Assembly: GCA_963790095.1 (NCBI GenBank)
Contig: CAWBNO010000007.1
Coordinates: forward strand, 15,852-79,851
Reading direction: 5' to 3'
DNA length: 64,000 nt
DNA from: an uncultured delta proteobacterium
GTDB lineage: Bacteria > Desulfobacterota > Desulfobacteria > Desulfobacterales > UBA11574
How positions within the stretch are numbered: the first letter of the stretch is position 1; each line of letters opens with the position of its first letter. The notes under the pieces are model-generated. The model did no database searches, was not told the DNA's origin, and saw nothing but the letters and a program-made list of their open reading frames with translations. This document shows positions 4,717 to 39,848 of this stretch, one piece after another. A program made the position numbers and the translations under genes.

Positions 4717-6291
4717 ATGCCGAACAAAAAAAATTCAATTGTTAACATTGCCCTTGTCGGCGGCGGAATCCTCTGTAGAGAAGTTTTAGAACAGACAACT
4801 TTTGATTTAACTCATGAGGATGTGAACGCCCCGGTTCTGGCAGTGGCAGATCCTGATACTCGGTCACCCGGCATGGTTCTTGCCGCAAAATTGGGCCTGT
4901 TAACCTTCACCGATTATCATGACCTGTATGATCCTCGCTACAACATTCACCTGATTATCATCCTGAGTCCTGAAGAGGATATTCTTGAGGACATTCTTGC
5001 AACACGGCCTTCCCGAATCCGAATCATGGCCTACAACGTCTTTGAGGTTTTCTGGAAAGCCCTTCATATTGAAGAACGCAAGTTAAGAAAGAGAAACGAA
5101 GAAATAGAGACCATCTTGAACGCTATTCAAGATTTTATTATGGTCATAACGCCCGACATGGATATTGTTGAAGTCAATGATGCATATCTTGAACAGATGG
5201 GCTATTCCCGTGAAAAAGTAATTGGCCGCAAGTGCCATGAAATCTACCAGCAAATCGTCTATCCCTGTGACAATTCAGAAATTGAATGCCCACTCAATGA
5301 GGTCATCCGAAACAAAAGGCCGTGCCGCCAGGTTCGAACCCGTGTGGGGCATGAAGGCGAACTTCTCCACATAGAAGTCAGCGTTTATCCCGTCTGGGAA
5401 AAGGATGGTAAAATCTCAAAGTTTATTCATATAAGCCGTGATATTACACAACAAAAAATGGAAGAGGAGGAAATCACTCGACGCCTGGAGCATATGGTAG
5501 AAGAACGAACACGGCAGTTAAAAGAAACCCACGATAAACTCCTTCATCAAGATAAGATGTCCTCACTGGGAAAGTTGTCTGCATCGGTTGTCCATGAAAT
5601 AAACAATCCCATCGCAGGCATACTCAATCTGACCATGCTCATCAAACGGATTATTGAAGAAGGATCGGTTGGTCAAGAAAAAGATCTTGAAAAATTCCTT
5701 TACTATTTGGGTCTCATGGAGACGGAAACCCGGCGAATCAGTCGAATTGTCAACAACTTGCTCACTTTTTCACGAGAATCCAATATGGAGTTTACAAAGT
5801 TAGACATAAACCGTTTGATCGAAAAAACACTGTTATTAAATGCAAATCTCCTCAAACTCAACGGCGTAAAGGTGGAAAAACATCTTAACCCTGATTTGCC
5901 TGAAATAATAGGATCAGAAGATCAGCTTCAACAGGTGTTCATGAATATTATTTCCAATGCCGCTGAAACCATCGAGGCTGCAGGAAGCGGTGTTTTGAGT
6001 ATTCAAACCCGGTACCTGCCAAAATCCGAGAGGATTGCCGCTATCTTTAAAGACACCGGAACGGTAATTCCCAAGGAAAATGTCTCTAAAATTTTCGAAC
6101 CCTTCTTCACGACCAAAAAAGAAGGTAAAGGTGTCGGGTTAGGGCTGTCTGTGGCTTACGGGATCGTCAGAGATCACAGCGGCACTATTTATGTTAAACC
6201 GGAGGAGGGAAAAGGAAACAGCTTCATCGTCAAACTTCCGCTGGAACAAAAACCTGTTACCCTTGACCAACAGGGAGGTCTCCATGGATAA
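4717..6291 (+). CDS. PAS-domain sensor histidine kinase
   Basis: 524-aa ORF. PAS block with Cys residues; H-box LSASVVHEINNPI; ATPase boxes NIISNAAE, KDTGTVIP, GKGVGLGLSV. Confidence 0.85.
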   Translation: MPNKKNSIVNIALVGGGILCREVLEQTTFDLTHEDVNAPVLAVADPDTRSPGMVLAAKLGLLTFTDYHDLYDPRYNIHLIIILSPEEDILEDILATRPSRIRIMAYNVFEVFWKALHIEERKLRKRNEEIETILNAIQDFIMVITPDMDIVEVNDAYLEQMGYSREKVIGRKCHEIYQQIVYPCDNSEIECPLNEVIRNKRPCRQVRTRVGHEGELLHIEVSVYPVWEKDGKISKFIHISRDITQQKMEEEEITRRLEHMVEERTRQLKETHDKLLHQDKMSSLGKLSASVVHEINNPIAGILNLTMLIKRIIEEGSVGQEKDLEKFLYYLGLMETETRRISRIVNNLLTFSRESNMEFTKLDINRLIEKTLLLNANLLKLNGVKVEKHLNPDLPEIIGSEDQLQQVFMNIISNAAETIEAAGSGVLSIQTRYLPKSERIAAIFKDTGTVIPKENVSKIFEPFFTTKKEGKGVGLGLSVAYGIVRDHSGTIYVKPEEGKGNSFIVKLPLEQKPVTLDQQGGLHG

Positions 6292-7630
6292 TACCAAGAT
6301 TCTTATCATCGATGATGAAATTATCATGCGAGAATCTTTGGCCGGCTGGCTTGAACGGGACGGCTACGAAATCGCCGTAGCGGCCAGCGGAGAAGAAGCT
6401 TTGGGAATATTAAAAGATTCGCGCTTTGATATCCTTCTGATAGATATCAAGATGGAGGGAATAAGCGGTCTTGATGTTTTAAACCAGGTCAAGGAAGATG
6501 ATCCTGATGTTGCTGTGGTTATGATAACGGCCTACGGGTCGATTTCTACGGCCATCGAGGCCATGAAGAAGGGAGCTTATGATTATCTTCTCAAACCTTT
6601 TGATCCGGATGCATTGGGTGTGCTTATTGAAAAAATAATTGAACATCAGGCTCAGGCTCGGGAAAATATTTTCTTGAAAGAACAGTACAAGGATCGAACC
6701 CGATTTGAGAGCATGATCGGCCAGTCCAAACCTATGCAGGAGATTTTTGACCTCATAGAGGACGTTGCTCCCATGGAATCTACGGTATTAATTTTCGGTG
6801 AAACAGGTACCGGCAAGGGATTGGCGGCGAAGGCAATCCACACCAAAAGCTCACAAGGTGACGGCCCTTTTGTCGTTGTTAACTGTGGGGCCATTCCCAG
6901 TCATATCATGGAAAGTGAACTTTTCGGCCACCAGAAAGGTGCCTTTACCGACGCCAAAGAAACAAGAAAGGGACGCCTTGAAATGGCCCATGGAGGCACA
7001 CTTTTTTTGGATGAAATCGGTGAAATAAGCATGAGAATGCAAATCGATCTGTTGCAGGTGCTGGAAGACCGCGTATTTTATCGCGTGGGGGGTACCCAAC
7101 CCCTTGAAGCATATTTCAGAGTCATTGCCGCCACAAATAGAAATATTGAAGACGCAATTAAAAATGGAATATTTCGGCAAGATCTGTACTACCGTCTGAA
7201 TGTGATCTCCTTTAAAATGCCCCCGTTAAGAGAACGAAAAGAAGATATCCCCCTTCTTTCTGAACACTTTCTTCATCGGTTTTCACAAGAAACGAACAAG
7301 CCCATAGAAAAGATCAGCCGCAATGCCATGGATGAAATGATGCTTTATGAATGGCCGGGGAACGTAAGAGAGCTGGAAAATGCCATTGAACGGGCTGTTG
7401 TCGTGGGCAAAGGCCACACCATTTTGCCCGATGATTTGCCCATTTTCTGCCGTGAACACGTATCACCCCAAAAAAACAACTCACTAAAAGAAGTTGAAAA
7501 AGCTCATATTTTTGAAATATTGAATGAGAATCAATGGAATATTGCAAAAAGTTCCAAAATGCTGGGAATAGACCGCTCCACGCTGTACAGTAAAATCAAA
7601 CGGTATAAATTAAGTAAACCGGCAGGGTAA
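6284..7630 (+). CDS. sigma-54-dependent response regulator (NtrC family)
   Basis: Receiver MDNTKILIIDDE; AAA+ Walker A GETGTGKG; GAFTDA (GAFTGA-type sigma-54 contact loop); ESELFGH; C-terminal Fis-type HTH. Start set to ATG 6284, an 8-nt overlap with the upstream kinase. Confidence 0.9.
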   Translation: MDNTKILIIDDEIIMRESLAGWLERDGYEIAVAASGEEALGILKDSRFDILLIDIKMEGISGLDVLNQVKEDDPDVAVVMITAYGSISTAIEAMKKGAYDYLLKPFDPDALGVLIEKIIEHQAQARENIFLKEQYKDRTRFESMIGQSKPMQEIFDLIEDVAPMESTVLIFGETGTGKGLAAKAIHTKSSQGDGPFVVVNCGAIPSHIMESELFGHQKGAFTDAKETRKGRLEMAHGGTLFLDEIGEISMRMQIDLLQVLEDRVFYRVGGTQPLEAYFRVIAATNRNIEDAIKNGIFRQDLYYRLNVISFKMPPLRERKEDIPLLSEHFLHRFSQETNKPIEKISRNAMDEMMLYEWPGNVRELENAIERAVVVGKGHTILPDDLPIFCREHVSPQKNNSLKEVEKAHIFEILNENQWNIAKSSKMLGIDRSTLYSKIKRYKLSKPAG

Positions 7631-7688
7631 TGCAGACCATTCCCACCACCCAAAACCATTATGATGGCGAATCACTCAACCCTATTAA

Positions 7689-8306
7689 ATGCCTGAAAAT
7701 AAGACTAAATATCATGACTTAGGCCCCATCTCACAACCTGTGACCCACAACGCCAATACCTTACGAAAAAATATCATCATTTCACCCATAGAAGATTTTG
7801 ATTCCAATCTTATTCGCCTGGTTGGCCGGGAAGTCCATCGGACATTCGGCTTCAGGACCCAAATAATGCCTCTTATGCAGCATGTTGATTTTGCCTTAGA
7901 TTCTGGCCGAAATCAGTATCATTCTACCGCCATCATCGGAAAACTGGCCGACCTGGTACCTTCCCAGGCCATCAAAATACTGGCGATTACCCGTGTGGAC
8001 CTTTATATCCCCATTCTGACACATGTTTACGGAGAAGCACAACTGGGCGGAAAAGCCTGCATTATTTCAACCCACCGTCTTAATGAAGGCCTTGGAATGG
8101 GCGTTTGGGAACCGTTTGGCCGGCGGGTAATAAAGGAGGCGATCCATGAACTGGGACACACCTTCAATCTCCGTCATTGTCAGAATTCCGCATGCTGCAT
8201 GCATTATTGCCGCAGTATAAAAGATGTAGATCGAAAATCAGAACAACTTTGTCGGTATTGCAAAGTACTTCTGGAAGATGAAATAAAAAGGCTGGCGGAA
8301 AAGTAA
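7689..8306 (+). CDS. amzA: archaemetzincin-type zinc metallopeptidase (peptidase M54-like)
   Basis: HELGHTFNLRHCQNSACCMHYCRSIKDVDRKSEQLCRYC matches the archaemetzincin signature HExxHxx(G)x3Cx4CxMx~17CxxC. Confidence 0.75.
   Translation: MPENKTKYHDLGPISQPVTHNANTLRKNIIISPIEDFDSNLIRLVGREVHRTFGFRTQIMPLMQHVDFALDSGRNQYHSTAIIGKLADLVPSQAIKILAITRVDLYIPILTHVYGEAQLGGKACIISTHRLNEGLGMGVWEPFGRRVIKEAIHELGHTFNLRHCQNSACCMHYCRSIKDVDRKSEQLCRYCKVLLEDEIKRLAEK
8278..8306 (+). repeat. 29-bp direct repeat copy 1 (putative attL core, overlaps amzA 3' end)
   Basis: ATGAAATAAAAAGGCTGGCGGAAAAGTAA is identical base for base to 25400-25428. Confidence 0.9.
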
Positions 8307-20648: not shown

Positions 20649-20680
20649 ATAACTACTTCAAAAAGTGATATAATATCATT

Positions 20681-23678: not shown

Positions 23679-23882
23679 TCATTTATTATCAGATTCCTCC
23701 TTTCTTTTCTTCGGCGAAGGCTCTTCGCTATCGTATACCTCAACATAAGCGTTGTGGAAGGGGCATCCTTTTTCCCAGTGATTCCTTACTTTCTGGCCGA
23801 TAAATGATTCTGGATATTTGCGCCCGATGTTGCACCCGGGGCAGACCTTATTCCACCAAGCCAGTACTTTTTTCATTTCCAT
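23679..23882 (-). CDS. small Cys/His-containing protein (possible zinc ribbon)
   Basis: 67 aa; CPGC ... CPFH pairs; lysine/glutamate-rich tail. Confidence 0.45.
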   Translation of the reverse strand: MEMKKVLAWWNKVCPGCNIGRKYPESFIGQKVRNHWEKGCPFHNAYVEVYDSEEPSPKKRKEESDNK

Positions 23883-23923
23883 CTTCGACTCCTTTCGGAG
23901 AGTTTCCCTTAATTTATGAAACG

Positions 23924-24238
23924 TTAAAGCTCACCGGAGCTTGTTTCCGGTGCAGCGGGTTGTTGGACATCGCTGAGAGGGAACTGGTTACGAATCGTTT
24001 TCAAGCGGTTGAATCCCAAGACGGTCACGCCAATACCAATCGCCATTCCAATCACCCCAGCAAACAGAAAGGGGAGATACCAGAATAGTAATGACTGGTC
24101 CGGTTCGCCCATCCTGGCAACGATGGCCTCGGAAACGTACATGACAACGAACACCGCACCCGTGATAGCAATCAAGGTGCCGAAGACTATAGCCACGTAA
24201 GGCAATATCTTATTCGATTCACGATGCTGCGTTCCCAT
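23924..24238 (-). CDS. small two-TM membrane protein
   Basis: 104 aa; two clear hydrophobic helices (YVAIVFGTLIAITGAVFVVMYV and FLFAGVIGMAIGIGVTVLGF). Confidence 0.5.
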   Translation of the reverse strand: MGTQHRESNKILPYVAIVFGTLIAITGAVFVVMYVSEAIVARMGEPDQSLLFWYLPFLFAGVIGMAIGIGVTVLGFNRLKTIRNQFPLSDVQQPAAPETSSGEL

Positions 24239-24316
24239 TCTGACCCTTTCGTTTAAATAGGAGATATTTATTTGATTTTACATCATAAATTGGATCGTCA
24301 TGATTGAATGGATATG

Positions 24317-24928
24317 TCACAAATCGCAAACTTTTTTAAAATTACATCTGTCACGGATTCTTTCATCTTCCACCTTTTTAAAAAACTTTTCATCCTTAGG
24401 TACGTTATTATCCACATCTAATAACAAGGATCTCATGTCCGCCACACTTCCTTTAATATATGACGTGGTATCTTTTATCTCACCTTTCGTAATAGTAAAT
24501 TCTGCTTTTTGATCAGATAAAAGGTTATACTCAATCAGTCTGATATTCTCCGGTTTGATACCCCACTTATCCTGACTATACATCGCATAGCAGGAAAGCT
24601 GGAGGGATATATCCTTGCTGGTTGCCCTTCCAGTTTTCCAATCTATAATCGTTACCCCATCATCGGTTCGGAAACTGCAATCGAGAACTGCCCATATCTT
24701 TAAGCCATCTAAATGGAAAAAGGAAAAATTTTCGACCTCCAGCCAATTTTCTTGTGGAAGATCTTTCAGTAAGGCAAACATCTCAGAACTATAAAAATTC
24801 CTGAGGCATTGCTCCACATCTTGAGCTATAATCAAAAGTTGTGTTTGAGGGATTAGGTGGTGTATCCTCCGGGAGATTGTTTCGCGGCAATAACCCGGCA
24901 TTTTGAACCACAAAATGAAAGGATACAC
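24317..24928 (-). CDS. PD-(D/E)XK (Cas4/RecB-like) nuclease family protein, probably 5'-truncated
   Basis: TIIDWKTGR, QLSCYAMY and the C-terminal RDRCNFKKVC blocks. The N-terminal Cys-containing region expected for this family is absent. The gene start abuts the IS256 fragment. Confidence 0.45.
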   Translation of the reverse strand: MYPFILWFKMPGYCRETISRRIHHLIPQTQLLIIAQDVEQCLRNFYSSEMFALLKDLPQENWLEVENFSFFHLDGLKIWAVLDCSFRTDDGVTIIDWKTGRATSKDISLQLSCYAMYSQDKWGIKPENIRLIEYNLLSDQKAEFTITKGEIKDTTSYIKGSVADMRSLLLDVDNNVPKDEKFFKKVEDERIRDRCNFKKVCDL

Positions 24929-24933
24929 ACACC

Positions 24934-25125
24934 ATGAGCCAAGATAACGTAATCGATTTAAAAAAGCCAGAACCGTTTGTAGAAGATCCCCTTACAGACA
25001 TATTAAGACAAGGAGCAAGACGATTGCTGACAGCAGCGCTGGAAGCCGAAATTGCTCTTTTCTTAGACCGATACAAGGAGATAACTAACGATAAGGGCTG
25101 TCAAAGGGTTGTCCGTAACGGCTAG
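24934..25125 (+). mobile_element. IS256-family transposase, N-terminal 63-aa fragment
   Basis: DPLTDILRQGARRLLTAALEAEIALFLDRY...GCQRVVRNG is the conserved IS256-type N-terminus. It stops where the recombinase fragment begins. Confidence 0.65.
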
Positions 25126-25334
25126 CGGGACTTCCTAAAATTAGATTTCATGACCTCAGACATACCTATGCCAGCCTTTTAATCGAGCAGGGAGAAAATA
25201 TTAAATACATTCAAAATCAACTTGGACATTCAAGTCCAACGGTCACATTGAATGTGTACGCTCACTTGATGAATCCAGTAAATCAAGAGGCTGTTTTAAG
25301 GCTTGAAAATATGATTTTTAAATCAACCGGGTAG
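25119..25334 (+). pseudogene. tyrosine recombinase (phage-integrase family), C-terminal fragment only
   Basis: Own translation: LPKIRFHDLRHTYASLLIEQGENIKYIQNQLGHSSPTVTLNVYAHLMNPVNQEAVLRLENMIFKSTG*. The HxLRH and LGH...Y catalytic boxes are present, but there is no N-terminal part and no start codon. Confidence 0.8.
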
Positions 25335-25399
25335 CAGAAACAAATTAGAAGCCCATGCCATATGTACTATTATTCAGATTTTATTACATTTTATGAATC

Positions 25400-25428
25400 A
25401 TGAAATAAAAAGGCTGGCGGAAAAGTAA
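25400..25428 (+). repeat. 29-bp direct repeat copy 2 (putative attR core)
   Basis: Identical to 8278-8306. Lies 65 nt after the stop of the recombinase fragment. Confidence 0.9.
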
Positions 25429-25512
25429 ACCACCGGCCTCGGAAAAAAATGTCTAATTATGGCTACCATCTTAGTATGACGAACTCGTAAAAAGTCTTTT
25501 GTAAGCGAAATC

Positions 25513-25632
25513 TGATCATTTGGGGATCCAGCGTTTCAAGCGGTGATACGTTAATAATTTGAAGCTGTTTGAGGAGCTTGCGACGAGTTCTTGAAATTTA
25601 GCATCACTGCTTGAAACGCCCCCAAATGGTCA
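25513..25632. repeat. ~120-nt long imperfect palindrome downstream of the GcvH-like operon
   Basis: TGATCATTTGGGG(atcca)GCGTTTCAAGCGGTGAT at 25513-25547 pairs with ATCACTGCTTGAAACGCCCCCAAATGGTCA at 25603-25632. There is also an inner pair AATTTGAAG/CTTGAAATT. Confidence 0.7.
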
Positions 25633-25665
25633 CTGAGCGAGCAAAATGGACTTTTTACGAAACCA

Positions 25666-26592
25666 TCAAGTATGAAGAAAAAGCTTCACAAGCCGATTCC
25701 AGCCGACTCGGGGAATGCTTCCATAGATATCATTCCCCAATTGACCGCCGTCCGCAGCCAACGGGCCTGCCGAATCTTCTATCACCCGATAAAGCCGATG
25801 GACTTCTTGTTTAAAAAAATCTTTTGCTTCACTGCCGATCATCAGATTCTGCAAATCCTCGCGAAGATTTTTTGAATGGACCCTCAAAACCCAGCCGTCA
25901 GCGTACGGATCTTGATTGGCAAGGCTCCCTTCGTCTCTTAATTTGGCGTTGATGGCAGTAACAACACCACTTATCGGTGAAAGCACCTTGGCCTGGTTTG
26001 GACCTCGGCTCATAATGATATCCGCAGAGTCTTGCTCTAAAGGCTTACCAATAAGAGGAGCCTCAATTTGATCGAGAGGACCCAAGACCCGGAGCGCAAA
26101 ATCATCCAATCCAATCCGGACTTCAGAACCTTCTTCCACTTTCACCCAAGCATGTCCTTTATGAAGATAAAATCCATGGGGGATCTTAATGCCTTCGATA
26201 TCCATGAAATCCACCGGCCTGACCACCGCATGGACCGTGTACTGGTCATTAAAATATTGATCAAATTCGCAATCTCCACATTTGTAATCCCTGTTGCAAG
26301 CTTTAAAATCAATGCGTCCTTTCATATGGTGCATGCATGGACGTTTCCACGGATGTCGTTGTTTTAACTTATCTTTCCAAAAAACCATTTGGCCTTTTCT
26401 TCCGGTTGGAATTTTGCCCTTTTTTTTGAGCCTCTCGTTTTCATCGCAAACACGCCTCAAGGCTCTGTCAAAACGGCAACCCGGGCAGTCATAGTTGCTG
26501 ACACAAAATTTGCGTTGAACGACTTCTGCCTGCATCCAAATGCAAGGGCTCTGTTTTTCTGTTGATCGATTCTTCAAAGGGATAGAATCCAT
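25666..26592 (-). CDS. GcvH-like (lipoyl-domain fold) protein with N-terminal double Cys4 module and conserved C-terminal extension, paralogue 1
   Basis: Central block HGFYLHKGHAWVKVEEGSEVRIGLDDFALRVLG...LSPISGVVTAINAKL...NQDPYADGWVLRV resembles glycine-cleavage H protein. N-terminus has CIWMQAEVVQRKFCVSNYDCPGC and CMHHMKGRIDFKACNRDYKCGDC. Confidence 0.7.
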   Translation of the reverse strand: MDSIPLKNRSTEKQSPCIWMQAEVVQRKFCVSNYDCPGCRFDRALRRVCDENERLKKKGKIPTGRKGQMVFWKDKLKQRHPWKRPCMHHMKGRIDFKACNRDYKCGDCEFDQYFNDQYTVHAVVRPVDFMDIEGIKIPHGFYLHKGHAWVKVEEGSEVRIGLDDFALRVLGPLDQIEAPLIGKPLEQDSADIIMSRGPNQAKVLSPISGVVTAINAKLRDEGSLANQDPYADGWVLRVHSKNLREDLQNLMIGSEAKDFFKQEVHRLYRVIEDSAGPLAADGGQLGNDIYGSIPRVGWNRLVKLFLHT

Positions 26593-26682
26593 TGTTTCCT
26601 GCCTTTCTTGAACGCTTCATCAATATTGAAGCTCCCTGAACGACATTATTTTTCAAAGATCCTGGTGTATTAAACATCGATG

Positions 26683-27681
26683 TTATGTTTTGAGAAACGT
26701 TTTCGTCAAATTTTTCCACCCGAGATCCGGAAGATTTCCATAGATATCGTCTTGCAAATAACCGCCATCCGCGGCCAAAGGACCTGCAACGTCTTCTATC
26801 ATGCCTTCCAGGGTGTCGATTTCATGGTTGACCCAATCCAAGCTGTCTGTATCTGACATGAGTTTTTTAACGGTTTTTTTGACATCCGGTGTATGCACCA
26901 TGAAAAGCCAGCCATCACCATAGGGCTCTTGATTGGCGATCGCGGGATTTTCTCTGACCTTTGAATTGACCTCTACAATGACGCCGTCCACCGGGGAAAG
27001 AATATCTGCCAAATTATCCTTCCGTTTCAATCCCCATCCCACACGGTCCATGTCGAGTTCCTTGCCCATCAGGGGAAGATCGAAAGCATCGGCTTTTCCC
27101 AACAGCTTGAGCGCAAAATCGTCCAGACCAATTCGGATATATCCACCGCTTTCAATTCGAGCCCACGTATGCCCGTTATGAAAAAAATACTCCATTGGGA
27201 CATCAAAACCTTTGACATGTTGCACTTCAAAGGGAACATTTTTGGTTTTGGCGGTCCATACTTCCTCGAAGAACTGGTCAAAATCGCATTTGGAACAATT
27301 ATAGTTCAACCCACATATCCTATTTTCGATGCGGCGGGTGAGGCTGTGCCGACACGTTCTATCCCTGCCCGGTCGCTGCCGCATGGCATCTTGCCAGCTC
27401 ATCTGCTTGCCTTTTGTTATCTGCTTCTGCATTCCCAGATCATATTTGCAGGTGTTGCAGTCATAAAAATTGTTGCAGTTTTTAAATTTTACAACACCGG
27501 CCTGCATCCAGATACACGGGTTTGCAGCTTTGGCCGCTCGGTCCGGCTTAAACATCCAGACCTGTCCCCCAAAAACCGCCCCGATCTCCGATTCTTTTCC
27601 CAGATCCTGCCGGATTCCCTTTCTGTAAGAAGAACCGTAACCAAACCGACTTTTTGGGGCCTCTCTTATTTTTTCTGCCAT
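26683..27681 (-). CDS. GcvH-like protein with N-terminal double Cys4 module, paralogue 2
   Basis: Same three-part architecture as paralogue 1: CIWMQAGVVKFKNCNNFYDCNTC; CRHSLTRRIENRICGLNYNCSKC; HNGHTWARIESGGYIRIGLDDFALKLLG...LSPVDGVIVEVNSKV...NQEPYGDGWLFMV; shared tail AGPLAADGG..DDIYG. Confidence 0.7.
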   Translation of the reverse strand: MAEKIREAPKSRFGYGSSYRKGIRQDLGKESEIGAVFGGQVWMFKPDRAAKAANPCIWMQAGVVKFKNCNNFYDCNTCKYDLGMQKQITKGKQMSWQDAMRQRPGRDRTCRHSLTRRIENRICGLNYNCSKCDFDQFFEEVWTAKTKNVPFEVQHVKGFDVPMEYFFHNGHTWARIESGGYIRIGLDDFALKLLGKADAFDLPLMGKELDMDRVGWGLKRKDNLADILSPVDGVIVEVNSKVRENPAIANQEPYGDGWLFMVHTPDVKKTVKKLMSDTDSLDWVNHEIDTLEGMIEDVAGPLAADGGYLQDDIYGNLPDLGWKNLTKTFLKT

Positions 27682-27750
27682 TTTCCTGACTCCTTTGTTT
27701 TATGTTTGGGTTTGGGTTTGTTTTCTTTTGTCTTTTGAAACATTTACAGA

Positions 27751-27765
27751 GCAAAGGGCATGCCA
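27751..27765 (-). promoter_or_regulatory. sigma-54 (-24/-12) promoter for the GcvH-like pair
   Basis: Minus strand reads TGGCATGCCCTTTGC, which has exact TGGCAY-N5-TTGC spacing. It sits ~70 nt upstream of start codon 27681. Confidence 0.7.
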
Positions 27766-28369
27766 AACAAAATACAGTGTGGGGATTAAATGGATAACAT
27801 CTTGATATTACAGTTTATTTTGAAAAATAAACAGGGGAAGGCCCGGTTTGGATAGCGGATTTCGAATGTAGGAATCCGCAACAGTTCAATGAGCCCATGG
27901 GGTGATGATGACAGACAAATCGTCTGTATTCCTTTTATTTACAGTTGGTTATAATTGTGTTGGATTTTCCAACAAATAATCTTGAATTTCCCCACCGGCC
28001 GATGGCAGTTCTCAAAAATATGTTCCGATTGAATTGCTTTCTGCCACAATTTCAGTCAGCCCCAGGATGATTCCGTTTCAATCGGGAAGCTGTCTGAGCA
28101 AATTAGAGCGCATTAAAGCGAACAGCAATGCGGTTGTCAAAATAATGATTATCATCATGTTCCCGCCGTGTAGTTTTAACACCTTAGATCTGTTCGCTTG
28201 GAAACGGGATTGTCCTGGGGTTGAAACGCTATGTTATAATCTGTAATTTTTGAACGGATCGACCCAACCAAGAAAACTCTGCGAAGACTCCCAGGGGTTT
28301 GCCCCGGTACTCCAGCTAATTCTAAATAGACCTTATGGATGGATGAATCGGACCCGTGAGAAATCCGGG

Positions 28370-29740
28370 TTAGTCGATTCCATAGGAGTTGAGCTTTCTT
28401 CGAAGGGTGTTCAGGCCGATGCCAAGACGCCTGGCGGCCTTGGATTTGTTTTGGCCGGACAGTTTATAAACCTTGATAATATGGAATCTTTCAACTTGGG
28501 CAAGGGATACCATATCTTCTGCTGCGGACGGGGTCAGACAGTTTGATATCGACTTGGACCTTCTTAATTCGTCGGGGAGAAAATCTGAAGAGATGGACCG
28601 CCCCTGGGCCAGATTTACGGCGGACTGTATGATCGACTTGAGTTCCCGGATGTTTCCGGGATAGTCGTACTCCATGAGCAGGCACATGGCCTCTTCTTCT
28701 ATGGTAAGATTTTTATTAGAGCGGTTATAGTCGTTTAGAAATTTACTCGCCAGAAGTGGTATATCTTCTCTTCTCTCCTTCAAAGGCGGCAGATGAAGCC
28801 ATCCGCCCCTGATTCTGTAATATAAATCTTTTCGGAAAACCTTTTTGGCCATCAGTTTTTCCAGATCTTCGTTGGTGGCGGCAATAAAGCGGACATCGGC
28901 CTTTTGATGGCGACTTTTACCCAGCTTAAAGTATTCTCCATCCTGCAGAACCCGCAGGAGTTTTCCCTGAAGTTCAAGGGGCATGTTGCCGATTTCGTCT
29001 AAAAATACGGTTCCGTGGTCGGTGTATTCCAGATATCCCTTGCGGCCATTTTCAGCACCGGTAAAGGCGCCTTTGGTGTGGCCGAAAAACTCCGCTTCAA
29101 AGAGACTGCCGGTGAGGGAAGCCATGTTGATCGGTGTAAAGGGAAACTTCCCCCGGAGGCTCGCAGCGTGAATGGCCCATGCAAGAAGTTCCTTTCCGGT
29201 TCCGCTCTCACCGGTAATTAACAGCGGAACATCGCTGCCTGCATGGAGCTCCGCTTCTTTGAGAACCCTTAAAACCTTTTGGGATCGGGTGACAATCGGC
29301 TTAAACGGTGCCGGATTTATCAGTTGGGGAAGGGTCGGACTTTTTTCGATATCCAGGATATCGAGCAGCCTTTTTTTCTCAAGTACCCGTTTCATGGAAA
29401 AGGCAAGATCTTCCTGGGAAACGGGCTTGACAAGATAATCATACGCACCTTTTTTTAAACATTCCACGGCAACCCGGGCCTCGTTGACCGCGGTGATCAT
29501 AATACATTCGGTTCTTGGGCTGATGTTCTTGATGGTTTCGAGCACTTCCAGCCCGTTCATCTCGGGCATGGTCATATCGATCAGTGCGATATCGAAAACC
29601 GCTCCTTGTTCAAACAGAGAAACCGCTGTTATGGAATTATCTTCCGTGCGTATATTTTTAAAACCTGAATTCAGAAGATGCGACCTTATGATTTTTAGAA
29701 AATCGAGATCGTCATCGATGATAATTATTTTATTTTCCAT
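28370..29740 (-). CDS. sigma-54-dependent response regulator / enhancer-binding protein
   Basis: Receiver KIIIIDDDLDF...DIALIDMTMPEMNG; AAA+ GESGTGKE; GAFTGA; EAEFFGH; C-terminal HTH AARRLGIGLNTLRRKL. Confidence 0.9.
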   Translation of the reverse strand: MENKIIIIDDDLDFLKIIRSHLLNSGFKNIRTEDNSITAVSLFEQGAVFDIALIDMTMPEMNGLEVLETIKNISPRTECIMITAVNEARVAVECLKKGAYDYLVKPVSQEDLAFSMKRVLEKKRLLDILDIEKSPTLPQLINPAPFKPIVTRSQKVLRVLKEAELHAGSDVPLLITGESGTGKELLAWAIHAASLRGKFPFTPINMASLTGSLFEAEFFGHTKGAFTGAENGRKGYLEYTDHGTVFLDEIGNMPLELQGKLLRVLQDGEYFKLGKSRHQKADVRFIAATNEDLEKLMAKKVFRKDLYYRIRGGWLHLPPLKERREDIPLLASKFLNDYNRSNKNLTIEEEAMCLLMEYDYPGNIRELKSIIQSAVNLAQGRSISSDFLPDELRRSKSISNCLTPSAAEDMVSLAQVERFHIIKVYKLSGQNKSKAARRLGIGLNTLRRKLNSYGID

Positions 29741-29981: not shown

Positions 29982-29996
29982 CGGCACGATTGTTGC
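29982..29996 (+). promoter_or_regulatory. sigma-54 (-24/-12) promoter for the metF/hdr operon
   Basis: CGGCACGATTGTTGC is GGCACG-N4-TTGC with canonical spacing. It faces the operon that starts at 30467. Confidence 0.7.
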
Positions 29997-30038
29997 TCAT
30001 ACGGTATCAGAAGGACATATCGCCCGTTTTTAGATTTA

Positions 30039-30466: not shown

Positions 30467-31336
30467 ATGAATTTAAAGCGCAAATTCGATGCAGGGGAAT
30501 TTGCCGTCCTTGCGGAAATGGAACCGCCCAAGGGGGTGGATGTCTCCACAATGCTGTTCAATGCCAAGAGAGTCAAGGGGGAAGTCGACGCCTTTGTCAT
30601 ACCGGAGATGAGTAACGCTGTCATGCGGATGAGTTCCCTAGGCGGTGCCATGATTCTCCAGGGAAAAGGGATGGAGACCGTGATGCAAGTGAACTGCAGA
30701 GATCGAAACCGGATTGCCCTCCAGGCGGATCTTCTGGCAGCCAATGGATGTGGAATCACCAACGTCATGGCGGTCACCGGAGAAGACCCCAGCTTTGGAG
30801 ATCATTTTCAGGCAAGATCAGTATATGACATCGATCTTCTGGAATTGCTCAATGCTATTAAAGGGCTTCAAGACGGAAAGGACATGGCCGGTATCGAGCT
30901 TTCAGGCGCCCCTGAATTCCTGGTGGGGTCCACGGTGGATGCAGGTGCCAAGGGAAAATCTCCCGAGCTGGAGGTGGAGGAGATGACCAAAAAAATTCAA
31001 GCGGGGGTCCAGTTTTTCATCTCACCCCCTTTATTTGACCTTTCCGCCATTCATCCGTTCATGAAACGTGTGGATATTCGGAAAACAAAAATCATCCCAA
31101 CGGTTTTACTTCTCAAATCCCTCGGCATGGCCCGATATATCATGCGGAATGTGGATAACGTTTATATCTCCGATTCACTGATCGACCGCATCCAAAAATC
31201 CCCTGACAAGGTCCGCGAGTGTACCCGGATTGCATCGGAAATGGTCACATCGTTAAAAAAAGAAGGCTTCAGCGGCGTAAACTTGGCAACCCTCGGATGG
31301 GAGCACAAACTCCCTGAGATACTCGAAAGAATATAA
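30467..31336 (+). CDS. methylenetetrahydrofolate reductase-like protein (MetF paralogue 1)
   Basis: [12 protein letters not shown]...[37 protein letters not shown] parallels the second MetF ([35 protein letters not shown]). GGAGG RBS. Confidence 0.75.
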
Positions 31337-31338
31337 GG

Positions 31339-34300
31339 ATGGGAAAAATGGAGCACACAAACAGCCAGAAGAACGACATGCCCACTGAAAAACACGGGAA
31401 AAATCCAATAGGATCGGCCATGGTGGTTGGCAGCGGAATCGCAGGGATGCAGTCCGCCCTCGATCTTGCCAACTCCGGTTATTATGTGTACCTGGTGGAA
31501 AAATCTTCGGCCATCGGCGGACTCATGTCGCAACTCGACAAGACTTTCCCCACCAACGACTGTGCCATGTGAATTATCTCACCGAAACTGGTCGAGGTCG
31601 GCCGGCACCTGAACATAGAGCTTCTGACAAACACCGAACTTTTGGATCTTAACGGCGAAGCAGGACATTTTACGGCCCGGATTCGCCAGGAACCCCGCTT
31701 TATTGACCTTTCAAAGTGTACGAGTTGCGGGGAATGTATCAAGGTCTGTCCCGTAGAGCTTCCCAACGAATACGACGAAGGCCTGTCTGTTAAGAAGGCG
31801 GCTTACAAAAAATACGCCCAGGCCATTCCAGGGGCCTTTGCCATTGAGAAAACAGACCCCGCGCCCTGCCGTATGACCTGCCCTGCCGGACAGAATGTTC
31901 AAGGATATGTTCAGATGGTCAAGGAAGGCAAGTATAAAGAGGCCTTGAAAATAATTATGGAAGATCATCCGTTCCCCGGAGTGCTGGGGCGGATTTGTCC
32001 CCACGAGTGCGAAGATGCGTGCCGTCGATGTGACGTCGATGAACCCATAGCCATCCGGGATCTCAAGCGACTGGCCGCAGATGAGTTTGATCCCCGGGAA
32101 ATCGAGATCGATTGTCTGCCACCCAGAAAAGAGAAGGTGGCCATCATCGGTTCAGGTCCTTCCGGCCTTTCCGCTGCCTATCATTTGGCCCGAAAAGGGG
32201 TGTTGTCCACGGTTTTTGAGGCCTTGCCCGAAGCCGGCGGGATGCTCCGTGTGGGGATCCCTGCCCATCGTCTGCCAAGGGACATTCTGGACCGGGAAAT
32301 CGAGGTGGTTACCAACCTGGGGGTGGAAATTAAGACCAACACCCCTTTGGGTGAGGATTTGACCCTGGATGATCTCTTGAACGATGGGTATCAAGCGGTG
32401 TATCTCGCCCTTGGCGCTCACAAAGGCATTGAACTGGGAATCCCCGGTGAAAAAGCCGGAGGCGTGCGTCAGGGCGTCGATTTCCTAAGAGAAGTCAATC
32501 TCACCGGCAAGGCCGACATCGGCGAAAATGTGACCATCATCGGGGGGGGGAATGTGGCCATCGATGTGGCCAGATCCGCAGTTCGGCTGGGTGCAAAATC
32601 GGTAAAAATCATTTACCGGCGCACCCGTGCAGAGATGCCGGCCTGGGAGGAAGAAATCCAGGCAACCGAGGCAGAGGGAGTTGAAATCACCTATCTTTCC
32701 GCACCCCAAGAGGTGTTGACCCAAGACGGCCGGGTCGTGGGACTCAGATGCATCCGGATGGAGCTGGGTGAACCGGATTCATCCGGCAGAAGACGGCCGG
32801 TTCCCATACCGGGCAGTGAATACGACATCAAGATCGACCAGCTGGTCCCCGCCATCGGTCAGCGCCCGGACCTTTCGGCCATCGAGAATGTGGCGGGCCT
32901 GAACATCTCCCGCTGGGGCACCACCGAAGTCGACGCCGTCACCTATTCAACGGATCGAGACGGTGTTTTTTCCGGGGGCGACTTGCAGACCGGTCCGGGC
33001 ATCGCCATCGCTGCCATCGCAGCCGGTCGCGAAGCCGCCGAATCCATCGTAAGGTACCTCGATCATCAGGATATGGCAAAAGGACGCGAACCCGCAACCC
33101 ATGAGGATCCGGTGTATCGTCCGATTCCCGAAGACGAACCTGAAATCCTTCGGTCAAAAATGCCGGAACTGCCCGTGGAAAAACGGGCAGGCAATTTTAA
33201 AGAAGTGGAACTGGGCTATGACGCAGCGTCCGGTCGGCAAGAAGCCGCACGCTGTTTGAACTGCAGTTACTGTTCGGAGTGCTATCAGTGTGTGGAAGCA
33301 TGTCTGGCAGAGGCTGTGGATCACTGCCAGGTACGGGTGGAAAGGGATATCGATGTGGGCTCCGTGGTGTTGTGCCCCGGAAGCGAGCCCTTCGATCCTT
33401 CGGGTCTGGAACAGTTCTATCATTACAAAAAAAATCCAAACGTGCTGACCAGTCTTGAATTTGAACGGATTCTCAGCGCTTCCGGTCCCACCATGGGACA
33501 TTTGGTCCGGCCTTCGGATGAAAAAGAGCCGAAAAAGATCGCCTGGCTCCAGTGCATCGGCTCCCGGGATACCAACCGATGCGGCAACGGTTACTGCTCT
33601 TCGGTCTGCTGCATGTATGCCATCAAAGACGCCATGATCGCCAAGGAGCATGCCCACGGAGACCTCGATTGTGCCATTTTCAACATGGATATCCGCACCT
33701 TCGGAAAGGACTACGAAAAATACTATCTTCGGGCCAAAGAAAAAGAGAACGTTCGATTTATCAAAGCACGGGTCCATACCATCGATGAGGTGGGGGAACA
33801 GAGAAATCTACGCATTCAGTATGTGAACGAAGCCGGTGAACTGGAAGAAGAGATTTTCGATATGATCGTCCTTTCGGTGGGTCTTCAGATGCCTGAATCC
33901 ACCGCTGATCTGGCCAAACGGTTGGATGTGGACCTTAACAAATACAAGTTTGCCGTTACCGACTCCTTTGCGCCGGTGGAGACTTCCCGACCGGGGGTTT
34001 ATGCCTGCGGCGTGTTTCAGGAACCCAAAGATATTCCGAGTTCCGTCACAGAAGCGAGTGCGGCTGCGTGTCTGGCAGGGGGCCGCCTGAATCAATCCAG
34101 GAACACCCTGACAAAAAGTGTTGAACTTCCCGAAGAAATCGATCTCACCGGTGAGGCGCCGCGAATCGGGGTGTTTGTCTGCAACTGTGGTGTCAACATT
34201 TCGGGTGTCGTCGACGTCGGCATGTTGGAAGAATATGCCAAAACACTTCCCCATGTGGTGCACGCCGGACAGAACCTCTTTACCTGCTCCCAGGATTCCC

Positions 34301-35826
34301 AGGAAGAAATGAAAGAGATCATCAAGGAACACCGGCTCAACCGGATCGTGGTGGCGGCATGCACGCCCAAAACCCACGAGGGAATATTCATGGATACCCT
34401 CGAAGCCTGCGGGATTAACAAATACCTCTTTGAGATGGCCAATATCCGGAATCAGGATTCCTGGGTCCATTCCGATGATCCTGAAAAAGCCTCCGGAAAA
34501 GCCAAACATCTGGTGAAAATGGCGGTGGCCCGCGCCGCCACCCTCCATCCCCTGCACGAAAAGAAAATTCCGGTCATTCAAAGAGCGCTGGTCATCGGTG
34601 GCGGGGTGGCCGGGATGAATGCCGCACTGGGTCTTGCAGACCAGGGGTTCCCTGTGGTTCTGATTGAAAAGGAAGACAAACTGGGGGGCATGGCCAACCG
34701 TCTGACCGCCACCATCGAAGGGGCGGATGTGGGAACGTATCTGAAAGAATTGATCCAAAAGGTGACATCCCATTCCCAAATCCAGGTGCTGACCCGTTCC
34801 CTTATCGTGGGGTTTTCCGGATTCAAAGGAAATTTCACCACCGAAGTTCTGGTGGGACCGGGCATGTATGAAAGAAAGATCGACCACGGCGTCGTTGTGT
34901 TGGCGACAGGTGCAACGGAATACCGCCCCAAAGAGTATCTCTACGGACAGAACGAAAGCGTGGTGACCCAGATCGAACTGGCCCAACGTTTAAAAGAAAA
35001 AGGGGCCGGGGATCTGGACCGGGTGGTCATGATCCAGTGTGTGGGATCGAGAAACGACGATAATCCCAACTGCTCCAGAATTTGCTGCCAGAGCGCCGTA
35101 AAAAATGCCCTTCATATCAAAAAACTTCAGCCGGATGCCCAAATTTTCATCCTTTACCGGGATATCCGGACCTACGGATTTCTGGAAGATTACTATACCG
35201 AAGCCAGAAAACAGGGCGTAATATTTTCCCGATACGATTCTGAAAATCCGCCGACGGTGGAATCGTCGGAAGCGGGTGTGGTGGTTACCTTCAAGGATCA
35301 CATTCTGGGTCGCGACCTCCAGGTCGGAGCCGACCTTCTTGCTTTGAGCGCCGGTATGGTTGCTGAAGATACCGAGGAACTCGCCTCCATCGTCAAGCTG
35401 GCCCGAACCGCAGAAGGTCACTTTATGGAGGCCCATGTGAAGCTCAGGCCTGTCGACATGGCCACCGAAGGAATTTTTGTGTGCGGGACCGCCCACAGTC
35501 CCAAATTGTTGCCCGAATCGATCTCACAGGCGTTTGCCGCAGCCTCCAGGGCCACGACATTTCTGTCCCAGCCACAGTTGACCCTGTCGGCGGTCACGGC
35601 CCAGGTGGAAGAAGACCTTTGTGCCTCATGCCTCATATGCGTCCGCTCCTGCCCTTATCAGGTGCCGAGGATCAACCAAGACGGTGTCAGTGAAATCGAT
35701 GTGGCATTATGTCACGGATGCGGTGTCTGTGCGGCGGAATGCCCGGCCAAGGCCATCGAACTTAGTTGGTATGAAGACGTTCAGATTATGAGCAAAATCG
35801 ACGCGCTCCTTGAGGACGTCCTGTAG
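31339..35826 (+). CDS. hdrA: large HdrA-like flavo-Fe-S fusion protein (two HdrA-type modules plus an inserted GltD/NfnB-like NAD(P)H module), with in-frame UGA read as selenocysteine
   Basis: ORFs 31339-31572 and 31642-35826 are in the same frame, separated only by TGA 31570-31572. The context [18 protein letters not shown] aligns with the HdrA TNDCxxC motif. GltD-like block [11 protein letters not shown]...[21 protein letters not shown]. Second HdrA module [12 protein letters not shown]...[15 protein letters not shown]...CVGSRNDD...CCQSA. C-terminal 2x[4Fe-4S] [12 protein letters not shown] / [12 protein letters not shown]. Confidence 0.8.
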
Positions 35827-35885: not shown

Positions 35886-36317
35886 ATGAAAGAAGATTTC
35901 GAGCCGATCATCATTGCATTTTGCTGCAGCTACTGAGGTTATACTGCTGCGGACCTGGCGGGGTCCATGCGATTGCAGTACCCTTCTGACATAAAAATCA
36001 TTCTCGTTCCATGCACCGGAAAGGTGGATGTCCTTCATATTCTCCATGCCTTTGAAAAGGGCGCGGATGGCGTATATGCCGTGGGATGTATGGAAGGAGA
36101 TTGTCATTATAACAGCGGCAACCTCAGGGCCCGTAAACGGGTGGAACAGGCCCAAAGCATTCTCGAGACCATCGGCATCGGCGGAGAAAGGGCACAAATG
36201 TACAACCTTTCCTCGAGTGAAGGACCGCGTTTCGCCCAGATTGCCGCTGAGATGGATGAAAAAATCCGAAATTTGGGGCCCAATCCGATTAAGCTGGCCA
36301 AAAAAAAGGCTGCGTAA
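35886..36317 (+). CDS. mvhD: MvhD-type (methyl-viologen-reducing hydrogenase delta subunit-like) protein with in-frame UGA (selenocysteine)
   Basis: Own translation from ATG 35886: MKEDFEPIIIAFCCSY-U-GYTAADLAGSMRLQYPSDIKIILVPCTGKVDVLHILHAFEKGADGVYAVGCMEGDCHY. TGA at 35934-35936 aligns with the conserved Cys of the CxWCxY motif. Same frame as the listed ORF 35967-36317. Confidence 0.8.
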
Positions 36318-38432: not shown

Positions 38433-38549
38433 CCGAAAATCGACCGCCATGTTATACCTGCAGCCGATTGTTTTCCATTGAAGGTTGATACTGCTCCATC
38501 TCCAAATTTCAACCTTCAACAGTCCATCTTCAATTGAATGGAGGCGATA

Positions 38550-39848
38550 ATGTCATCCCAGATTATCAAGATTAAAGGGAAGAAGAAAAGCACGTTTAAA
38601 GACCAGGTCATGGCGCTTTTGCCCGAAGGGGGGAACCTGAATCTATGTCTGACCTGCGGGCTCTGTTCTTCCGGCTGCCCGGCCACCGGCCTGGAAAATA
38701 TGGATCCCAGAAAATTCCTCCGAATGGCCGCTCTCGGCCTGGACGATGAAATTCTGAATTCCAACTGGGCCTGGTGTTGTACCATGTGCACCCGGTGCGT
38801 TTATGCCTGTCCCATGAAAATCGACATCCCCGGTCTGATTTTCAACGTTCGAAAAAACTGGCCCAAGGACGATCAGCCCAAAGGTATCCGGGGGTCTTGC
38901 GAGATGGCCCTAAAAAACGACACCTGCAGCGCCATGGGGGCCAATGAAGAAGATTGGCGTTTTGTGGTGGAAGATGTGGCTGAAGAAGTGCGGGAATCCC
39001 AGCCCGGTTTTGAAGATCTCCAGGCGCCCATGGACAAGGAAGGTGCTTATTTCTATCTCAACCAGAACTCCCGGGAGCCCGTAACCGAGCCGGACGAGAT
39101 GGTACCGCTGTGGAAGATTTTAAATCTGGTGGGGGCTGACTGGACCTACGGATCCAAGGGCTGGGCAGCGGAAAACTACTGCCTGTTCTGTGCGGATCTG
39201 GAAAATTGGGAAAAAATCGTTCGGGTCAAGGCAAAGGCAGTGGATGATTTGAAATGCAAGGTCTGGCTCAATACGGAGTGAGGGCACGAACTGTTTGCGG
39301 TCCGGGTCGGACTGCAACGATTCAACATCGAGCATAATTTTGAGTGCAAGAGTATCATTCAGTATTATGCCCAGTGGATCCGGGAAGGAAAACTGAAAGT
39401 TAATTCAGACTGGAACAAGGACCTGAAGGTCAAGTTCACGGTTCAGGACCCCTGCCAGCTGGTTCGCAAGAGCTTTGGCGATCCGGTGGCGGAAGACATG
39501 CGGTATGTTGTCAAAACAGTTGTGGGCGAAGAGAATTTCGTAGACATGACGCCCAACAAGTCCAACAACTACTGCTGCGGCGGCGGGGGCGGGTTCCTTC
39601 AGTCGGGATTCCCGGAATCCAGACGATATTACGGCAAACGCAAATTCGACCAGATCATGGCGACCGACGCCGATTACTGTATTACGCCGTGCCACAACTG
39701 TCACGCACAGATTCACGATTTAAAGGAACACTACCAAGGCAAATATCATACGGTTCATTTGTGGACCATCATATGCCTTTCCCTGGGGATTCTTGGCGAA
39801 AATGAACGTGTATACCTGGGATCGGACTTGGCCGAATTCGGTTTATAA
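38550..39848 (+). CDS. HdrD/GlpC-like Fe-S oxidoreductase (2x[4Fe-4S] plus CCG domains) with in-frame UGA (selenocysteine)
   Basis: CLTCGLCSSGCP and CTMCTRCVYACP ferredoxin motifs. TGA 39279-39281 (NTE-U-GHELF). The frame is open from 39282 into the listed ORF 39486-39848 (checked codon by codon). Downstream CCG-type blocks QDPCQL, NYCCGGGGG and TPCHNCHAQ. Start set to ATG 38550, behind GGAGG. Confidence 0.75.
39297..39315 (+). promoter_or_regulatory. candidate SECIS hairpin for the hdrD-like UGA
   Basis: GCGGTCC-gggtc-GGACTGC: a 7-bp stem with one G-U pair and a G-rich 5-nt loop, starting 16 nt after the UGA. Confidence 0.4.

Follow-up and report, generated by a model that had tools for sequence, protein, structure and literature searches.

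A tandem pair of genes, P2 and P1, in a 64,000-nt stretch of DNA from an uncultured member of the Desulfobacterales (assembly GCA_963790095.1, contig CAWBNO010000007.1, positions 15,852 to 79,851 of the forward strand; hereafter, the window) encodes an undescribed type of protein, in which a lysine-less barrel of the glycine cleavage H-protein (GcvH) type is combined with a new eight-cysteine domain and a conserved C-terminal tail. In our preferred, though tentative, interpretation, whose probability we place somewhat short of even, P2 and P1 are a non-lipoylated adaptor or accessory subunit, induced via sigma-54 and a two-component system (TCS), that docks on redox complexes of the HdrA/MvhD/HdrD type. 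This interpretation is favored because relatives of the pair are fused to components of such complexes or reside in their operons, and because the lipoyl-lysine is lost and cysteine-free members of the family exist.

The two genes (Table 1) encode paralogues that align end to end (38% identity over the full length, E 4e-88), P1 lying directly downstream of P2. An earlier interpretation made from the letters of this DNA alone (the sequence-only reading) had described them as tandem paralogues of 332 and 308 aa with an uncharacterized three-part architecture, and both the open reading frames (ORFs) and the three parts are indeed there. In P2, two four-cysteine (Cys4) modules (residues 56-81 and 110-135) are followed by the GcvH-like barrel (~160-272) and the tail (~273-332); in P1, the modules occupy residues 17-42 and 86-111 and are likewise followed by the barrel and the tail. 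An N-terminal extension of 52 residues (..GYGSSYR...GGQVWMFKPD), found in P2 and not in P1, is conserved in orthologues and predicted to be disordered, and may represent a docking or cleavage peptide. The AlphaFold2 (AF2) model of P2, built from an alignment of 45 sequences, has a mean predicted local distance difference test score (pLDDT) of 77, with residues 1-52 disordered and the remainder mostly above 85.

The assignment of the central region to the GcvH fold, proposed by the sequence-only reading, is borne out by profile search and by structure superposition. Pfam GCV_H (PF01597) matches both proteins (E-values 2.6e-21 and 1.3e-21), and in a Foldseek comparison of the AF2 model with solved H-proteins this domain of P2 reached a template modeling (TM) score of 0.92 to 1onl (root-mean-square deviation 1.6 A). 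The lysine of the ESVK motif of the Thermus and E. coli H-proteins aligns (HMMER) with D222 of P2, K221 being one position before it, and in the family alignment the same column of P1 is occupied by P198, as the sequence-only reading had placed these residues. To cover the family, a hidden Markov model-anchored alignment was made of 120 P2 orthologues, 150 diverse representatives (122 of which aligned) and 141 locus-derived pair members. Among the P2 orthologues the lipoyl column holds D in 56, E in 35, N in 10, K in 7 and G in 6 (D, E or N in 101/120), and K is present there in 5/122 diverse representatives. A lysine at the preceding (-1) position is seen in 96/120 P2 orthologues and 8/122 diverse relatives and is missing from P1, while the position two residues ahead of the lysine column is almost always arginine (118/120, and 140/141 pair members). 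Because the lysine column is largely occupied by other residues and the -1 lysine is missing from P1 and from nearly all diverse relatives, classical lipoylation does not appear, judging from these alignments, to be a conserved property of the P2/P1 family; the doubt first raised for P2 and P1 thus extends to the family as a whole. No genes for gcvT/gcvP/lpd, lplA/lipB or lipoate synthase occur among the annotated genes of the window (1.8-42.5 kb) or the annotated families of the 80-locus census described below. Membership of P2 and P1 among ordinary GcvH or LbpA proteins was rejected on the lysine column test. Nor can we retain the wording "carrier" used in the sequence-only reading, as there is no swinging-arm residue and many relatives are devoid of any cysteine.

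The N-terminal domain is composed of two copies, in each of P2 and P1, of the pattern C-x12-C-x5-C-x2-C-x-(F/Y)-D; the double repeat reported by the sequence-only reading stands, with the amendment that the first spacing is x12 in all four modules rather than x12/13. The first and second modules match each other in profile-profile comparison (hhalign probability 98.8%, E 1e-16), hence the internal duplication is real. W58 and all eight cysteines vary hardly or not at all. The module region modeled alone has a pLDDT of 86.5, and the AF2 model places four cysteines within a compact stretch of 26 residues at high confidence, without a hydrophobic core and with the CxxC motifs at helix N-termini. 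Neither the model (Foldseek, best E 6.3) nor the module profile gave a meaningful match in the Protein Data Bank (PDB). When 31 modules were scanned singly against Pfam, no Fer4-type match was found even at E 5, whereas zf-CHY (PF05495) appeared below threshold in 16/31 (best E 7e-4; 16.1 bits for P2 vs a gathering score of 31.3) and Zn-ribbon families, also below threshold, in a few. Like CHY-type zinc fingers, the modules have four cysteines per ~26 residues and show a weak recurrent similarity to them; unlike CHY fingers, they have no histidine ligands, and their C-I-W-M-x-A-G-V-V signature is not CHY. They also differ from classical 2x[4Fe-4S] ferredoxins, whose motif is C-x2-C-x2-C-x3-C-P. 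The possibility that ferredoxin domains replace the Cys4 module in some relatives was rejected: those domains are the C-terminus of HdrA and, therefore, carry no information on Fe-S in the Cys4 module. A search for other architectures with a 40-aa Cys-module profile returned only four short fragments. Overall, we conclude that the Cys4 module is a new predicted metal-binding repeat, the metal being Zn or Fe-S.

The C-terminal tail of ~60 aa common to P2 and P1 (AGPLAADGG...DIYG..P..GW..L.K.FL) is, as the sequence-only reading held, a real conserved element; its family consensus, A-x-(D/T/S)-G-G ... D-(I/V)-(F/Y)-G ..P.. G-W ..L... F-L, recurs in virtually every relative that was aligned, and no Pfam match or meaningful PDB sequence match to it was found. 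Two sequence modules are newly defined here: the Cys4 repeat of the CIWM type, whose fold found no match in the PDB, and the tail A-x-(D/T/S)-G-G...GW...FL.

A word-indexed search retrieved 1713 relatives, of which the best 120 are 332-aa Desulfobacterales proteins, 71-89% identical and, if named, called "glycine cleavage system H". When 1.84 billion cluster representatives were searched exhaustively, 97 clusters scored E <= 1e-30, and close orthologues (70-96% identity) are spread over more than 120 clusters. The Cys4 module occurs twice in 56 of the best 150 representatives, once in 34, four times in a single protein and not at all in 59; some relatives lack cysteine altogether. Because of these 59, we regard the barrel with its tail as the core module of a large uncharacterized superfamily and the Cys4 repeat as an accessory. 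The named members belong to Desulfococcaceae, Desulfacinum, Desulfosoma, Desulfobacca acetoxidans, Desulfobaccales and Syntrophobacterales, in addition to one Anaerolineae metagenome-assembled genome (MAG).

Recurrently, the module is fused to, or encoded together with, redox complexes of the HdrA/MvhD/HdrD type or related ones in the membrane. In protein P0178, HdrA-like, 2x[4Fe-4S], MvhD and Molydop_binding segments are fused to the barrel and tail, and the fusion gene is embedded in the operon hdrB-hdrL-mvhD-metV-metF-hdrA-[fusion]-hdrC-hdrB (locus L081). In P0261 and P0229 the C-terminus of HdrA is joined directly to the barrel and tail, the HdrA part of P0261 being 40% identical to residues 1153-1388 of the HdrL in the window (E 1e-55). 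P0201 unites three lysine-less GCV_H domains with an FAD-oxidase and HdrD. At a Desulfacinum/Desulfosoma-type locus (L089, 38% identity) a single three-part gene heads hdrC-hdrB-hdrL-hdrA-mvhD, and this operon is divergent from genes for a PAS histidine kinase (HK), a sigma-54 response regulator (RR), an M54 peptidase, mvhD and metV. A tandem pair from Desulfobaccales (L095), one gene Cys-free and the other Cys4-bearing, is flanked on one side by genes for a sigma-54 RR and a PAS-HK and on the other by an Hmc-type operon that includes an HdrD-like (HmcF-like) subunit. At L097 the module is fused to an HmcD-like (PF28260) membrane helix and adjoins NrfD, followed by a Cys4-bearing paralogue, M54, a sigma-54 RR and a Cache-HK; at L092 a membrane-anchored Cys-free member precedes Fer4_11-NrfD-HK-sigma-54 RR-M54.

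Tandem arrays of two or three GcvH-like paralogues with the tail, in which Cys4-bearing, Cys-free and membrane-anchored forms are mixed, were observed at L086 (218-2510), L095 (10001-11580) and L097 (2089-3600). Since such arrays recur in distant lineages, the paralogue pair is an old theme, not peculiar to Desulfobacterales. The archaemetzincin-like M54 gene is the last one of the HK - sigma-54 RR operon in several Desulfobacterota orders, always beside GcvH-like genes with the tail (window 7689-8306; L079 11989-12570; L089, L090, L092, L097). One may speculate that this peptidase processes the N-terminus of P2.

The genomic context within the order was assessed at 80 loci, all from Desulfobacterales or "Deltaproteobacteria" MAGs, by a census of ORF families combined with Pfam scans. 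P1 directly follows P2 in 63/63 loci with room for it. In the common arrangement (B), P2 and P1 are followed by the convergent genes of M54, sigma-54 RR and PAS-HK (read from the last to the first gene of their operon), and then by HdrL and MvhD on the strand of the pair; the TCS/M54 cluster is present in 24-26 of the 36 loci having >= 4.5 kb downstream of P1. In arrangement A, shared by the window and 11 other loci, a second NtrC-type regulator is located upstream of P2 on the same strand, divergent from the metF-like - hdrL - mvhD - metV - metF operon. HdrL is <= 10 kb away in 16 of the 23 loci with full flanks. Together with the operon-internal and fused forms in other Desulfobacterota orders, this extends the co-occurrence with Hdr-type genes, postulated from the window, to other genomes. 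The census counted a sigma-54 RR in 38 loci, M54 in 34, PAS-HK in 32 and HdrL in 30; the most constant companion of the family is the HK/sigma-54 RR/M54-peptidase trio, of which the sequence-only reading had named only the activator. The neighbors recognized in the census are HdrL, MvhD, HdrD, MetFV, the TCS and M54, and no DsrE, TusA or LplA-like genes were seen among them. Rubrerythrin is encoded immediately ahead of P2, on the other strand, in 13 loci (e.g. L039 9059-9529, L016 9109-9576); its gene is not so placed in the window.

The sigma-54 promoter attributed to the pair is supported by phylogenetic footprinting: a -24/-12 element (TGGCA[CT]-N5-TTGC, with variable spacer) is found in 71/75 orthologous loci having enough upstream sequence, 54-104 nt from the start codon in 70 of the 71. 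Of 88 strict matches on both strands of 2.04 Mb of locus sequence, 71 are upstream of P2. Two enhancer-like palindromes (TGT-N11-ACA) are positionally fixed relative to the -24 box, the classical layout of tandem sites for an enhancer-binding protein, which we consider putative here. Sigma-54-type elements also precede the distant members at L089, L090, L092, L095 and L086. The activator adjacent to the pair in the window (type A) is upstream of P2 and co-directional with it, hence not back to back with the pair as had been described; it is divergent from the metF-hdrL operon. An element [CT]GGCA[CT]-N5-TTGCT is present ahead of the metF-like operon in the window and in six other loci with a type-A activator, and this recurrence suggests that the type-A activator may control the Hdr/MetF operon. 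The strict motif was absent upstream of hdrL, TCS, M54 and rubrerythrin genes in the 2 Mb of locus sequence, and the hypothesis of one common sigma-54 regulon for all neighbors was dropped, except for the metF-like operon of arrangement A. An Rfam scan of 24-31 kb (E 0.1) returned nothing and, therefore, offers neither a riboswitch nor a small RNA to account for the long leader; scans for sigma-70 promoters and for terminators stayed at chance level, and the tRNA scan gave none.

In the mechanism that we propose, P2 and P1 would constitute a dedicated, conditionally expressed sigma-54-dependent bicistronic operon. The PAS-HK would phosphorylate the NtrC-type RR, which would bind the two palindromes and activate the -24/-12 promoter. 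The barrel with its helical tail would dock on the cytoplasmic HdrA/MvhD/HdrD-type part of energy-conserving redox complexes; here, the target would be the HdrL-MvhD(Sec)-HdrD(Sec)-MetFV enzyme (Sec, selenocysteine), a methylene-tetrahydrofolate-linked and probably electron-bifurcating component of the Wood-Ljungdahl pathway. The pair, probably a heterodimer, would supply four Cys4 metal centers (Zn or Fe-S), which might extend or re-route the electron path of the complex or sense its redox state. Fusions and operon membership point to a physical role of the barrel and tail at Hdr-type complexes. A role of the module as a redox carrier in its own right is made unlikely by the lost lysine and by members devoid of cysteine.

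Several points weigh against the adaptor interpretation. The support for docking is indirect, coming from fusions and operon membership. HdrL is missing within 10 kb in 7/23 full-flank loci, and the strict sigma-54 motif was found in 0/34 hdrL operons of the common arrangement, so that co-regulation is not general. The many Cys-free relatives imply that the core module cannot itself transfer electrons, and as to the metal, zf-CHY or Zn-ribbon families gave weak matches below threshold in 16/31 modules, and Fer4 gave none. Finally, the redox neighbor varies (Hdr/MetFV, Hmc-like, NrfCD-like) while the HK/RR/M54 trio is more constant, which fits a regulatory role equally well. Indeed, P1 and P2 could be components of a signaling circuit, that is, the main sigma-54 target of the PAS-HK/NtrC-RR system; they would sense redox state or metal and give feedback, or gate CCG/HdrD sites as a pseudo-substrate lacking the lysine, with M54 possibly processing or degrading them, e.g. 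at the N-terminus of P2. This alternative, unlikely in our estimate but a serious contender, draws on the presence of an HK and a sigma-54 RR (with or without M54) beside family members in every lineage examined, on a promoter of the pair separate from that of hdrL, on the Cys-free members, on the conserved yet disordered extension of P2, and on P0138, which adjoins CheX and a receiver protein, and P0201, which adjoins an HK and an OmpR-type RR. On the other hand, fusions to HdrA, MvhD, HdrD and an HmcD-like protein and positions within enzyme operons typify enzyme subunits, domain scans detected no DNA-binding or signaling domain in P1 or P2, and the pair, although adjoining the TCS, never shares an operon with it.

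The same permanent fusions, unusual for maturation factors, speak against P1 and P2 as assembly or protection factors for cluster-rich HdrA/CCG proteins (an Fe-S insertion or repair scaffold, or a chaperone) co-induced with a quality-control peptidase by redox or oxidative stress. Neither an ATPase nor a known Fe-S biogenesis domain is present in them, and Cys-free members could not hold clusters; we give this possibility little probability, even though the predicted sigma-54/TCS-controlled expression, the co-conserved M54 peptidase, the rubrerythrin gene directly upstream in 13 loci, the predicted Cys4 metal sites and neighbors rich in Fe-S clusters would all suit it. The eight cysteines might instead be redox-active dithiol/disulfide (or persulfide) sites, making P1/P2 a protein substrate of the HdrD/HdrB CCG site, as DsrC is for DsrK or lipoyl-LbpA for sHdr. 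A CCG-type subunit does recur nearby (HdrD in the window, L081, L089, the HmcF-like subunit of L095, the P0201 fusion), the CxxC motifs sit at helix N-termini, and no physiological substrate is known to us for the Hdr-type CCG proteins that accompany MetFV in bacteria. The electron partners of MetFV-linked Hdr have been discussed as unresolved (PMC8515935). However, four invariant cysteines in 26 compact residues modeled with high confidence and without a hydrophobic core argue for a metal site, as does the weak Zn-finger similarity, and Cys-free paralogues in the same operons imply that what the family conserves is a function other than thiol chemistry, which leaves this possibility with very little probability. 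P1 and P2 could also be taken for zinc-finger fusions of ordinary lipoylated carriers of the GcvH or LbpA type, in which lipoate would be attached at K221 of P2. Such an assignment could appeal to the significant GCV_H match, to the -1 lysine in most P2 orthologues and to the canonical lysine-bearing gcvH found with lpdA near metFV in acetogen Wood-Ljungdahl clusters, which has been explained by the shared substrate methylene-tetrahydrofolate (PMC8515935). It is contradicted by scores against the NCBIfam gcvH equivalog TIGR00527 (65.6 and 77.9 bits) far below the cut-off of 115.85, by D/E/N/P/G in the true lipoyl column, by the absence of the -1 lysine from P1, from 20% of close P2 orthologues and from all but a few diverse relatives, and by annotated neighborhoods devoid of gcvT/gcvP, lplA/lipB and lipoate-synthase genes. 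In addition, Wallis and Perham reportedly found in 1994 that a one-position shift of the lysine in lipoyl domains abolishes lipoylation. We consider this assignment to have next to no chance of being correct.

P2 shares the barrel-sandwich fold of GcvH (PF01597, TIGR00527; PDB 1onl, 3a8i), and both P2 and P1 keep its fold-determining motifs H-x-W, G-x-(T/D)-D-(Y/F)-A, P-x-x-G, V-N and P-Y-x-x-G-W. Unlike GcvH, they have no lipoyl-lysine and a near-invariant arginine two residues upstream of that column, carry the N-terminal double Cys4 domain and an extra 60-aa tail, are not linked to gcvT/gcvP and are predicted to be sigma-54 regulated. Recruitment of H-protein homologues outside glycine cleavage is exemplified by GcvH-L of Streptococcus pyogenes and Staphylococcus aureus (PDB 5a35; TIGR03077, "not_gcvH"), to which the P2 model shows a structural match (E 1.6e-5). 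GcvH-L is, however, still lipoylated, belongs to a macrodomain/sirtuin operon and is a single domain without the Cys4 module, the tail or a linkage to Hdr.

The closest described analogue in logic is LbpA of sulfur oxidizers with the sHdr system (PMC6067878), likewise a GcvH-like protein genetically coupled to an Hdr-like complex with a CCG-type HdrB and often present as more than one paralogue. LbpA, however, keeps the lipoyl-lysine and relies on dedicated lipoate ligases and assembly genes (PMC6067878), while the P2/P1 family has neither the lysine nor such genes nearby. The linkage differs as well: the shdrC1B1AHC2B2 set and sulfur transferases (DsrE/TusA) for LbpA, HdrL/MvhD/HdrD/MetFV or Hmc-like partners for P2/P1, the hosts being sulfur oxidizers and sulfate reducers, respectively. 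The set in the window (metF-like, hdrL, mvhD, metV, metF, hdrD) is of the type of the acetogen MetFV-HdrABC-MvhD methylene-tetrahydrofolate reductase and of the HdrL-MvhD clusters of Desulfobacterium autotrophicum (PMC2702500, PMC8515935, PMC9430772), and it shares the selenocysteine forms described for the latter (PMC2702500); those descriptions include no GcvH-like Cys-rich accessory protein and no sigma-54/TCS/M54 control. We found no description in the literature of the family, of the Cys4 module or of a link to sigma-54/TCS/M54, in agreement with the earlier statement that no described system matches; Hdr, H protein and M54 are likewise absent from the paper on the sigma-54 regulome of D. 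vulgaris. A broader proposal, which we regard as distinctly unlikely, is that lysine-less H-protein modules are a general overlooked partner of CCG/HdrA-type complexes (HdrL-MvhD-HdrD-MetFV, Hmc-like, NrfCD-like) in sulfate reducers and relatives, a lipoate-free anaerobic counterpart of LbpA. Their role might be to gate the CCG/HdrA site or serve it as a pseudo-substrate, or to carry an unknown cofactor or metal center in the CIWM-type Cys4 domain, and the PAS-kinase/sigma-54/M54 circuit would deploy them to switch the direction or coupling of electron bifurcation.

Anaerobic bioenergetics has long lacked the physiological partners and substrates of the many Hdr-like complexes in sulfate reducers, syntrophs and acetogens, among them HdrL-MvhD, MetFV-HdrABC-MvhD and the HdrD-like subunits of Hmc and Tmc. 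Here, a widespread family is tied to exactly those complexes genetically and, by fusion, physically, which provides concrete proteins for pull-down, deletion and characterization, with a predicted on/off handle in the form of the sigma-54 promoter, two enhancer sites and a cognate TCS. The analysis also corrects a systematic misannotation, as the label "glycine cleavage system protein H" inflates the inference of glycine cleavage or the reductive glycine pathway in Desulfobacterota MAGs.

Table 1. Features of the window discussed in the text (positions in the 64,000-nt stretch).
Feature	Position	Strand	Remarks
P2	26683..27681	-	332 aa
P2 N-terminal extension	27526-27681	-	Residues 1-52
P2 Cys4 module 1	27439..27516	-	CIWMQAGVVKFKNCNNFYDCNTCKYD
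P2 Cys4 module 2	27277..27354	-	CRHSLTRRIENRICGLNYNCSKCDFD
P1	25666..26592	-	308 aa
Sigma-54 -24/-12 element	27750..27765	-	TGGCATGCCCTTTGCT; 68 nt upstream of P2 ATG
Proximal palindrome TGT-N11-ACA	27867..27883	-	TGTTGCGGATTCCTACA; -118 from -24 box; consensus TGTAGaAtATTcCtACA
Distal palindrome	27958..27974	-	TGTTGGAAAATCCAACA; -209 from -24 box; consensus TGTtGaAAAATcCaACA
Type-A NtrC-family response regulator	28370..29740	-	REC + sigma-54 AAA+ + HTH_8
Sigma-54-like element	29982..29997	+	CGGCACGATTGTTGCT; ~470 nt upstream of metF-like/hdrL operon
MetF-like (methylenetetrahydrofolate reductase, MTHFR) protein	30467..31336	+	First gene of Hdr cluster
HdrL	31642..35826	+	GltD/NfnB-like domain fused to HdrA, 1394 aa
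MvhD/FlpD selenoprotein	35886..36317	+	In-frame TGA 35934-35936 (..FCCSY-U-GY..)
MetV (DUF5981)	36361-37029	+	
MetF	37026-37958	+	
CheY-like single-domain receiver	38046-38432	+	Between metF and HdrD-like gene
HdrD-like selenoprotein	38538..39848	+	HdrC + HdrB/CCG fusion; in-frame TGA 39279-39281 (..LNTE-U-GHE..)
Type-B cluster	4717..8306	+	PAS histidine kinase 4717-6291; sigma-54 RR 6275-7630; M54 archaemetzincin-like peptidase 7689-8306
IS110-family transposase fragment	9055-9681		Within 8307-25665 block
AOR-like gene	14415-16382		Within 8307-25665 block
PD-(D/E)XK fragment	24317-24928		Within 8307-25665 block

The HdrA/GltD fusion and its selenoprotein partners were named HdrL, MvhD and HdrD in D. 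autotrophicum (PMC2702500), where GcvH-like genes are not mentioned. An ORF caller would split or truncate both the MvhD and the HdrD-like selenoprotein genes of the window. The type-B cluster has the canonical convergent orientation but is located ~17 kb from P1, and the intervening block (8307-25665) appears inserted or rearranged; besides the entries in Table 1, it holds glycosyltransferases, a CDF transporter, DUF3124 and an FGE-sulfatase-like gene, with a low-GC stretch at 20-22 kb (GC 0.34). The type-B PAS-HK is immediately preceded, at 1875-4706 (+), by genes for a histidine kinase with several PAS domains (607 aa) and a free-standing receiver protein (185 aa), which could form a phosphorelay feeding the type-B regulator. 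Another HK-like and receiver-like pair at 44925-46431 (-) is 33-43% identical to the type-B system (tblastn).

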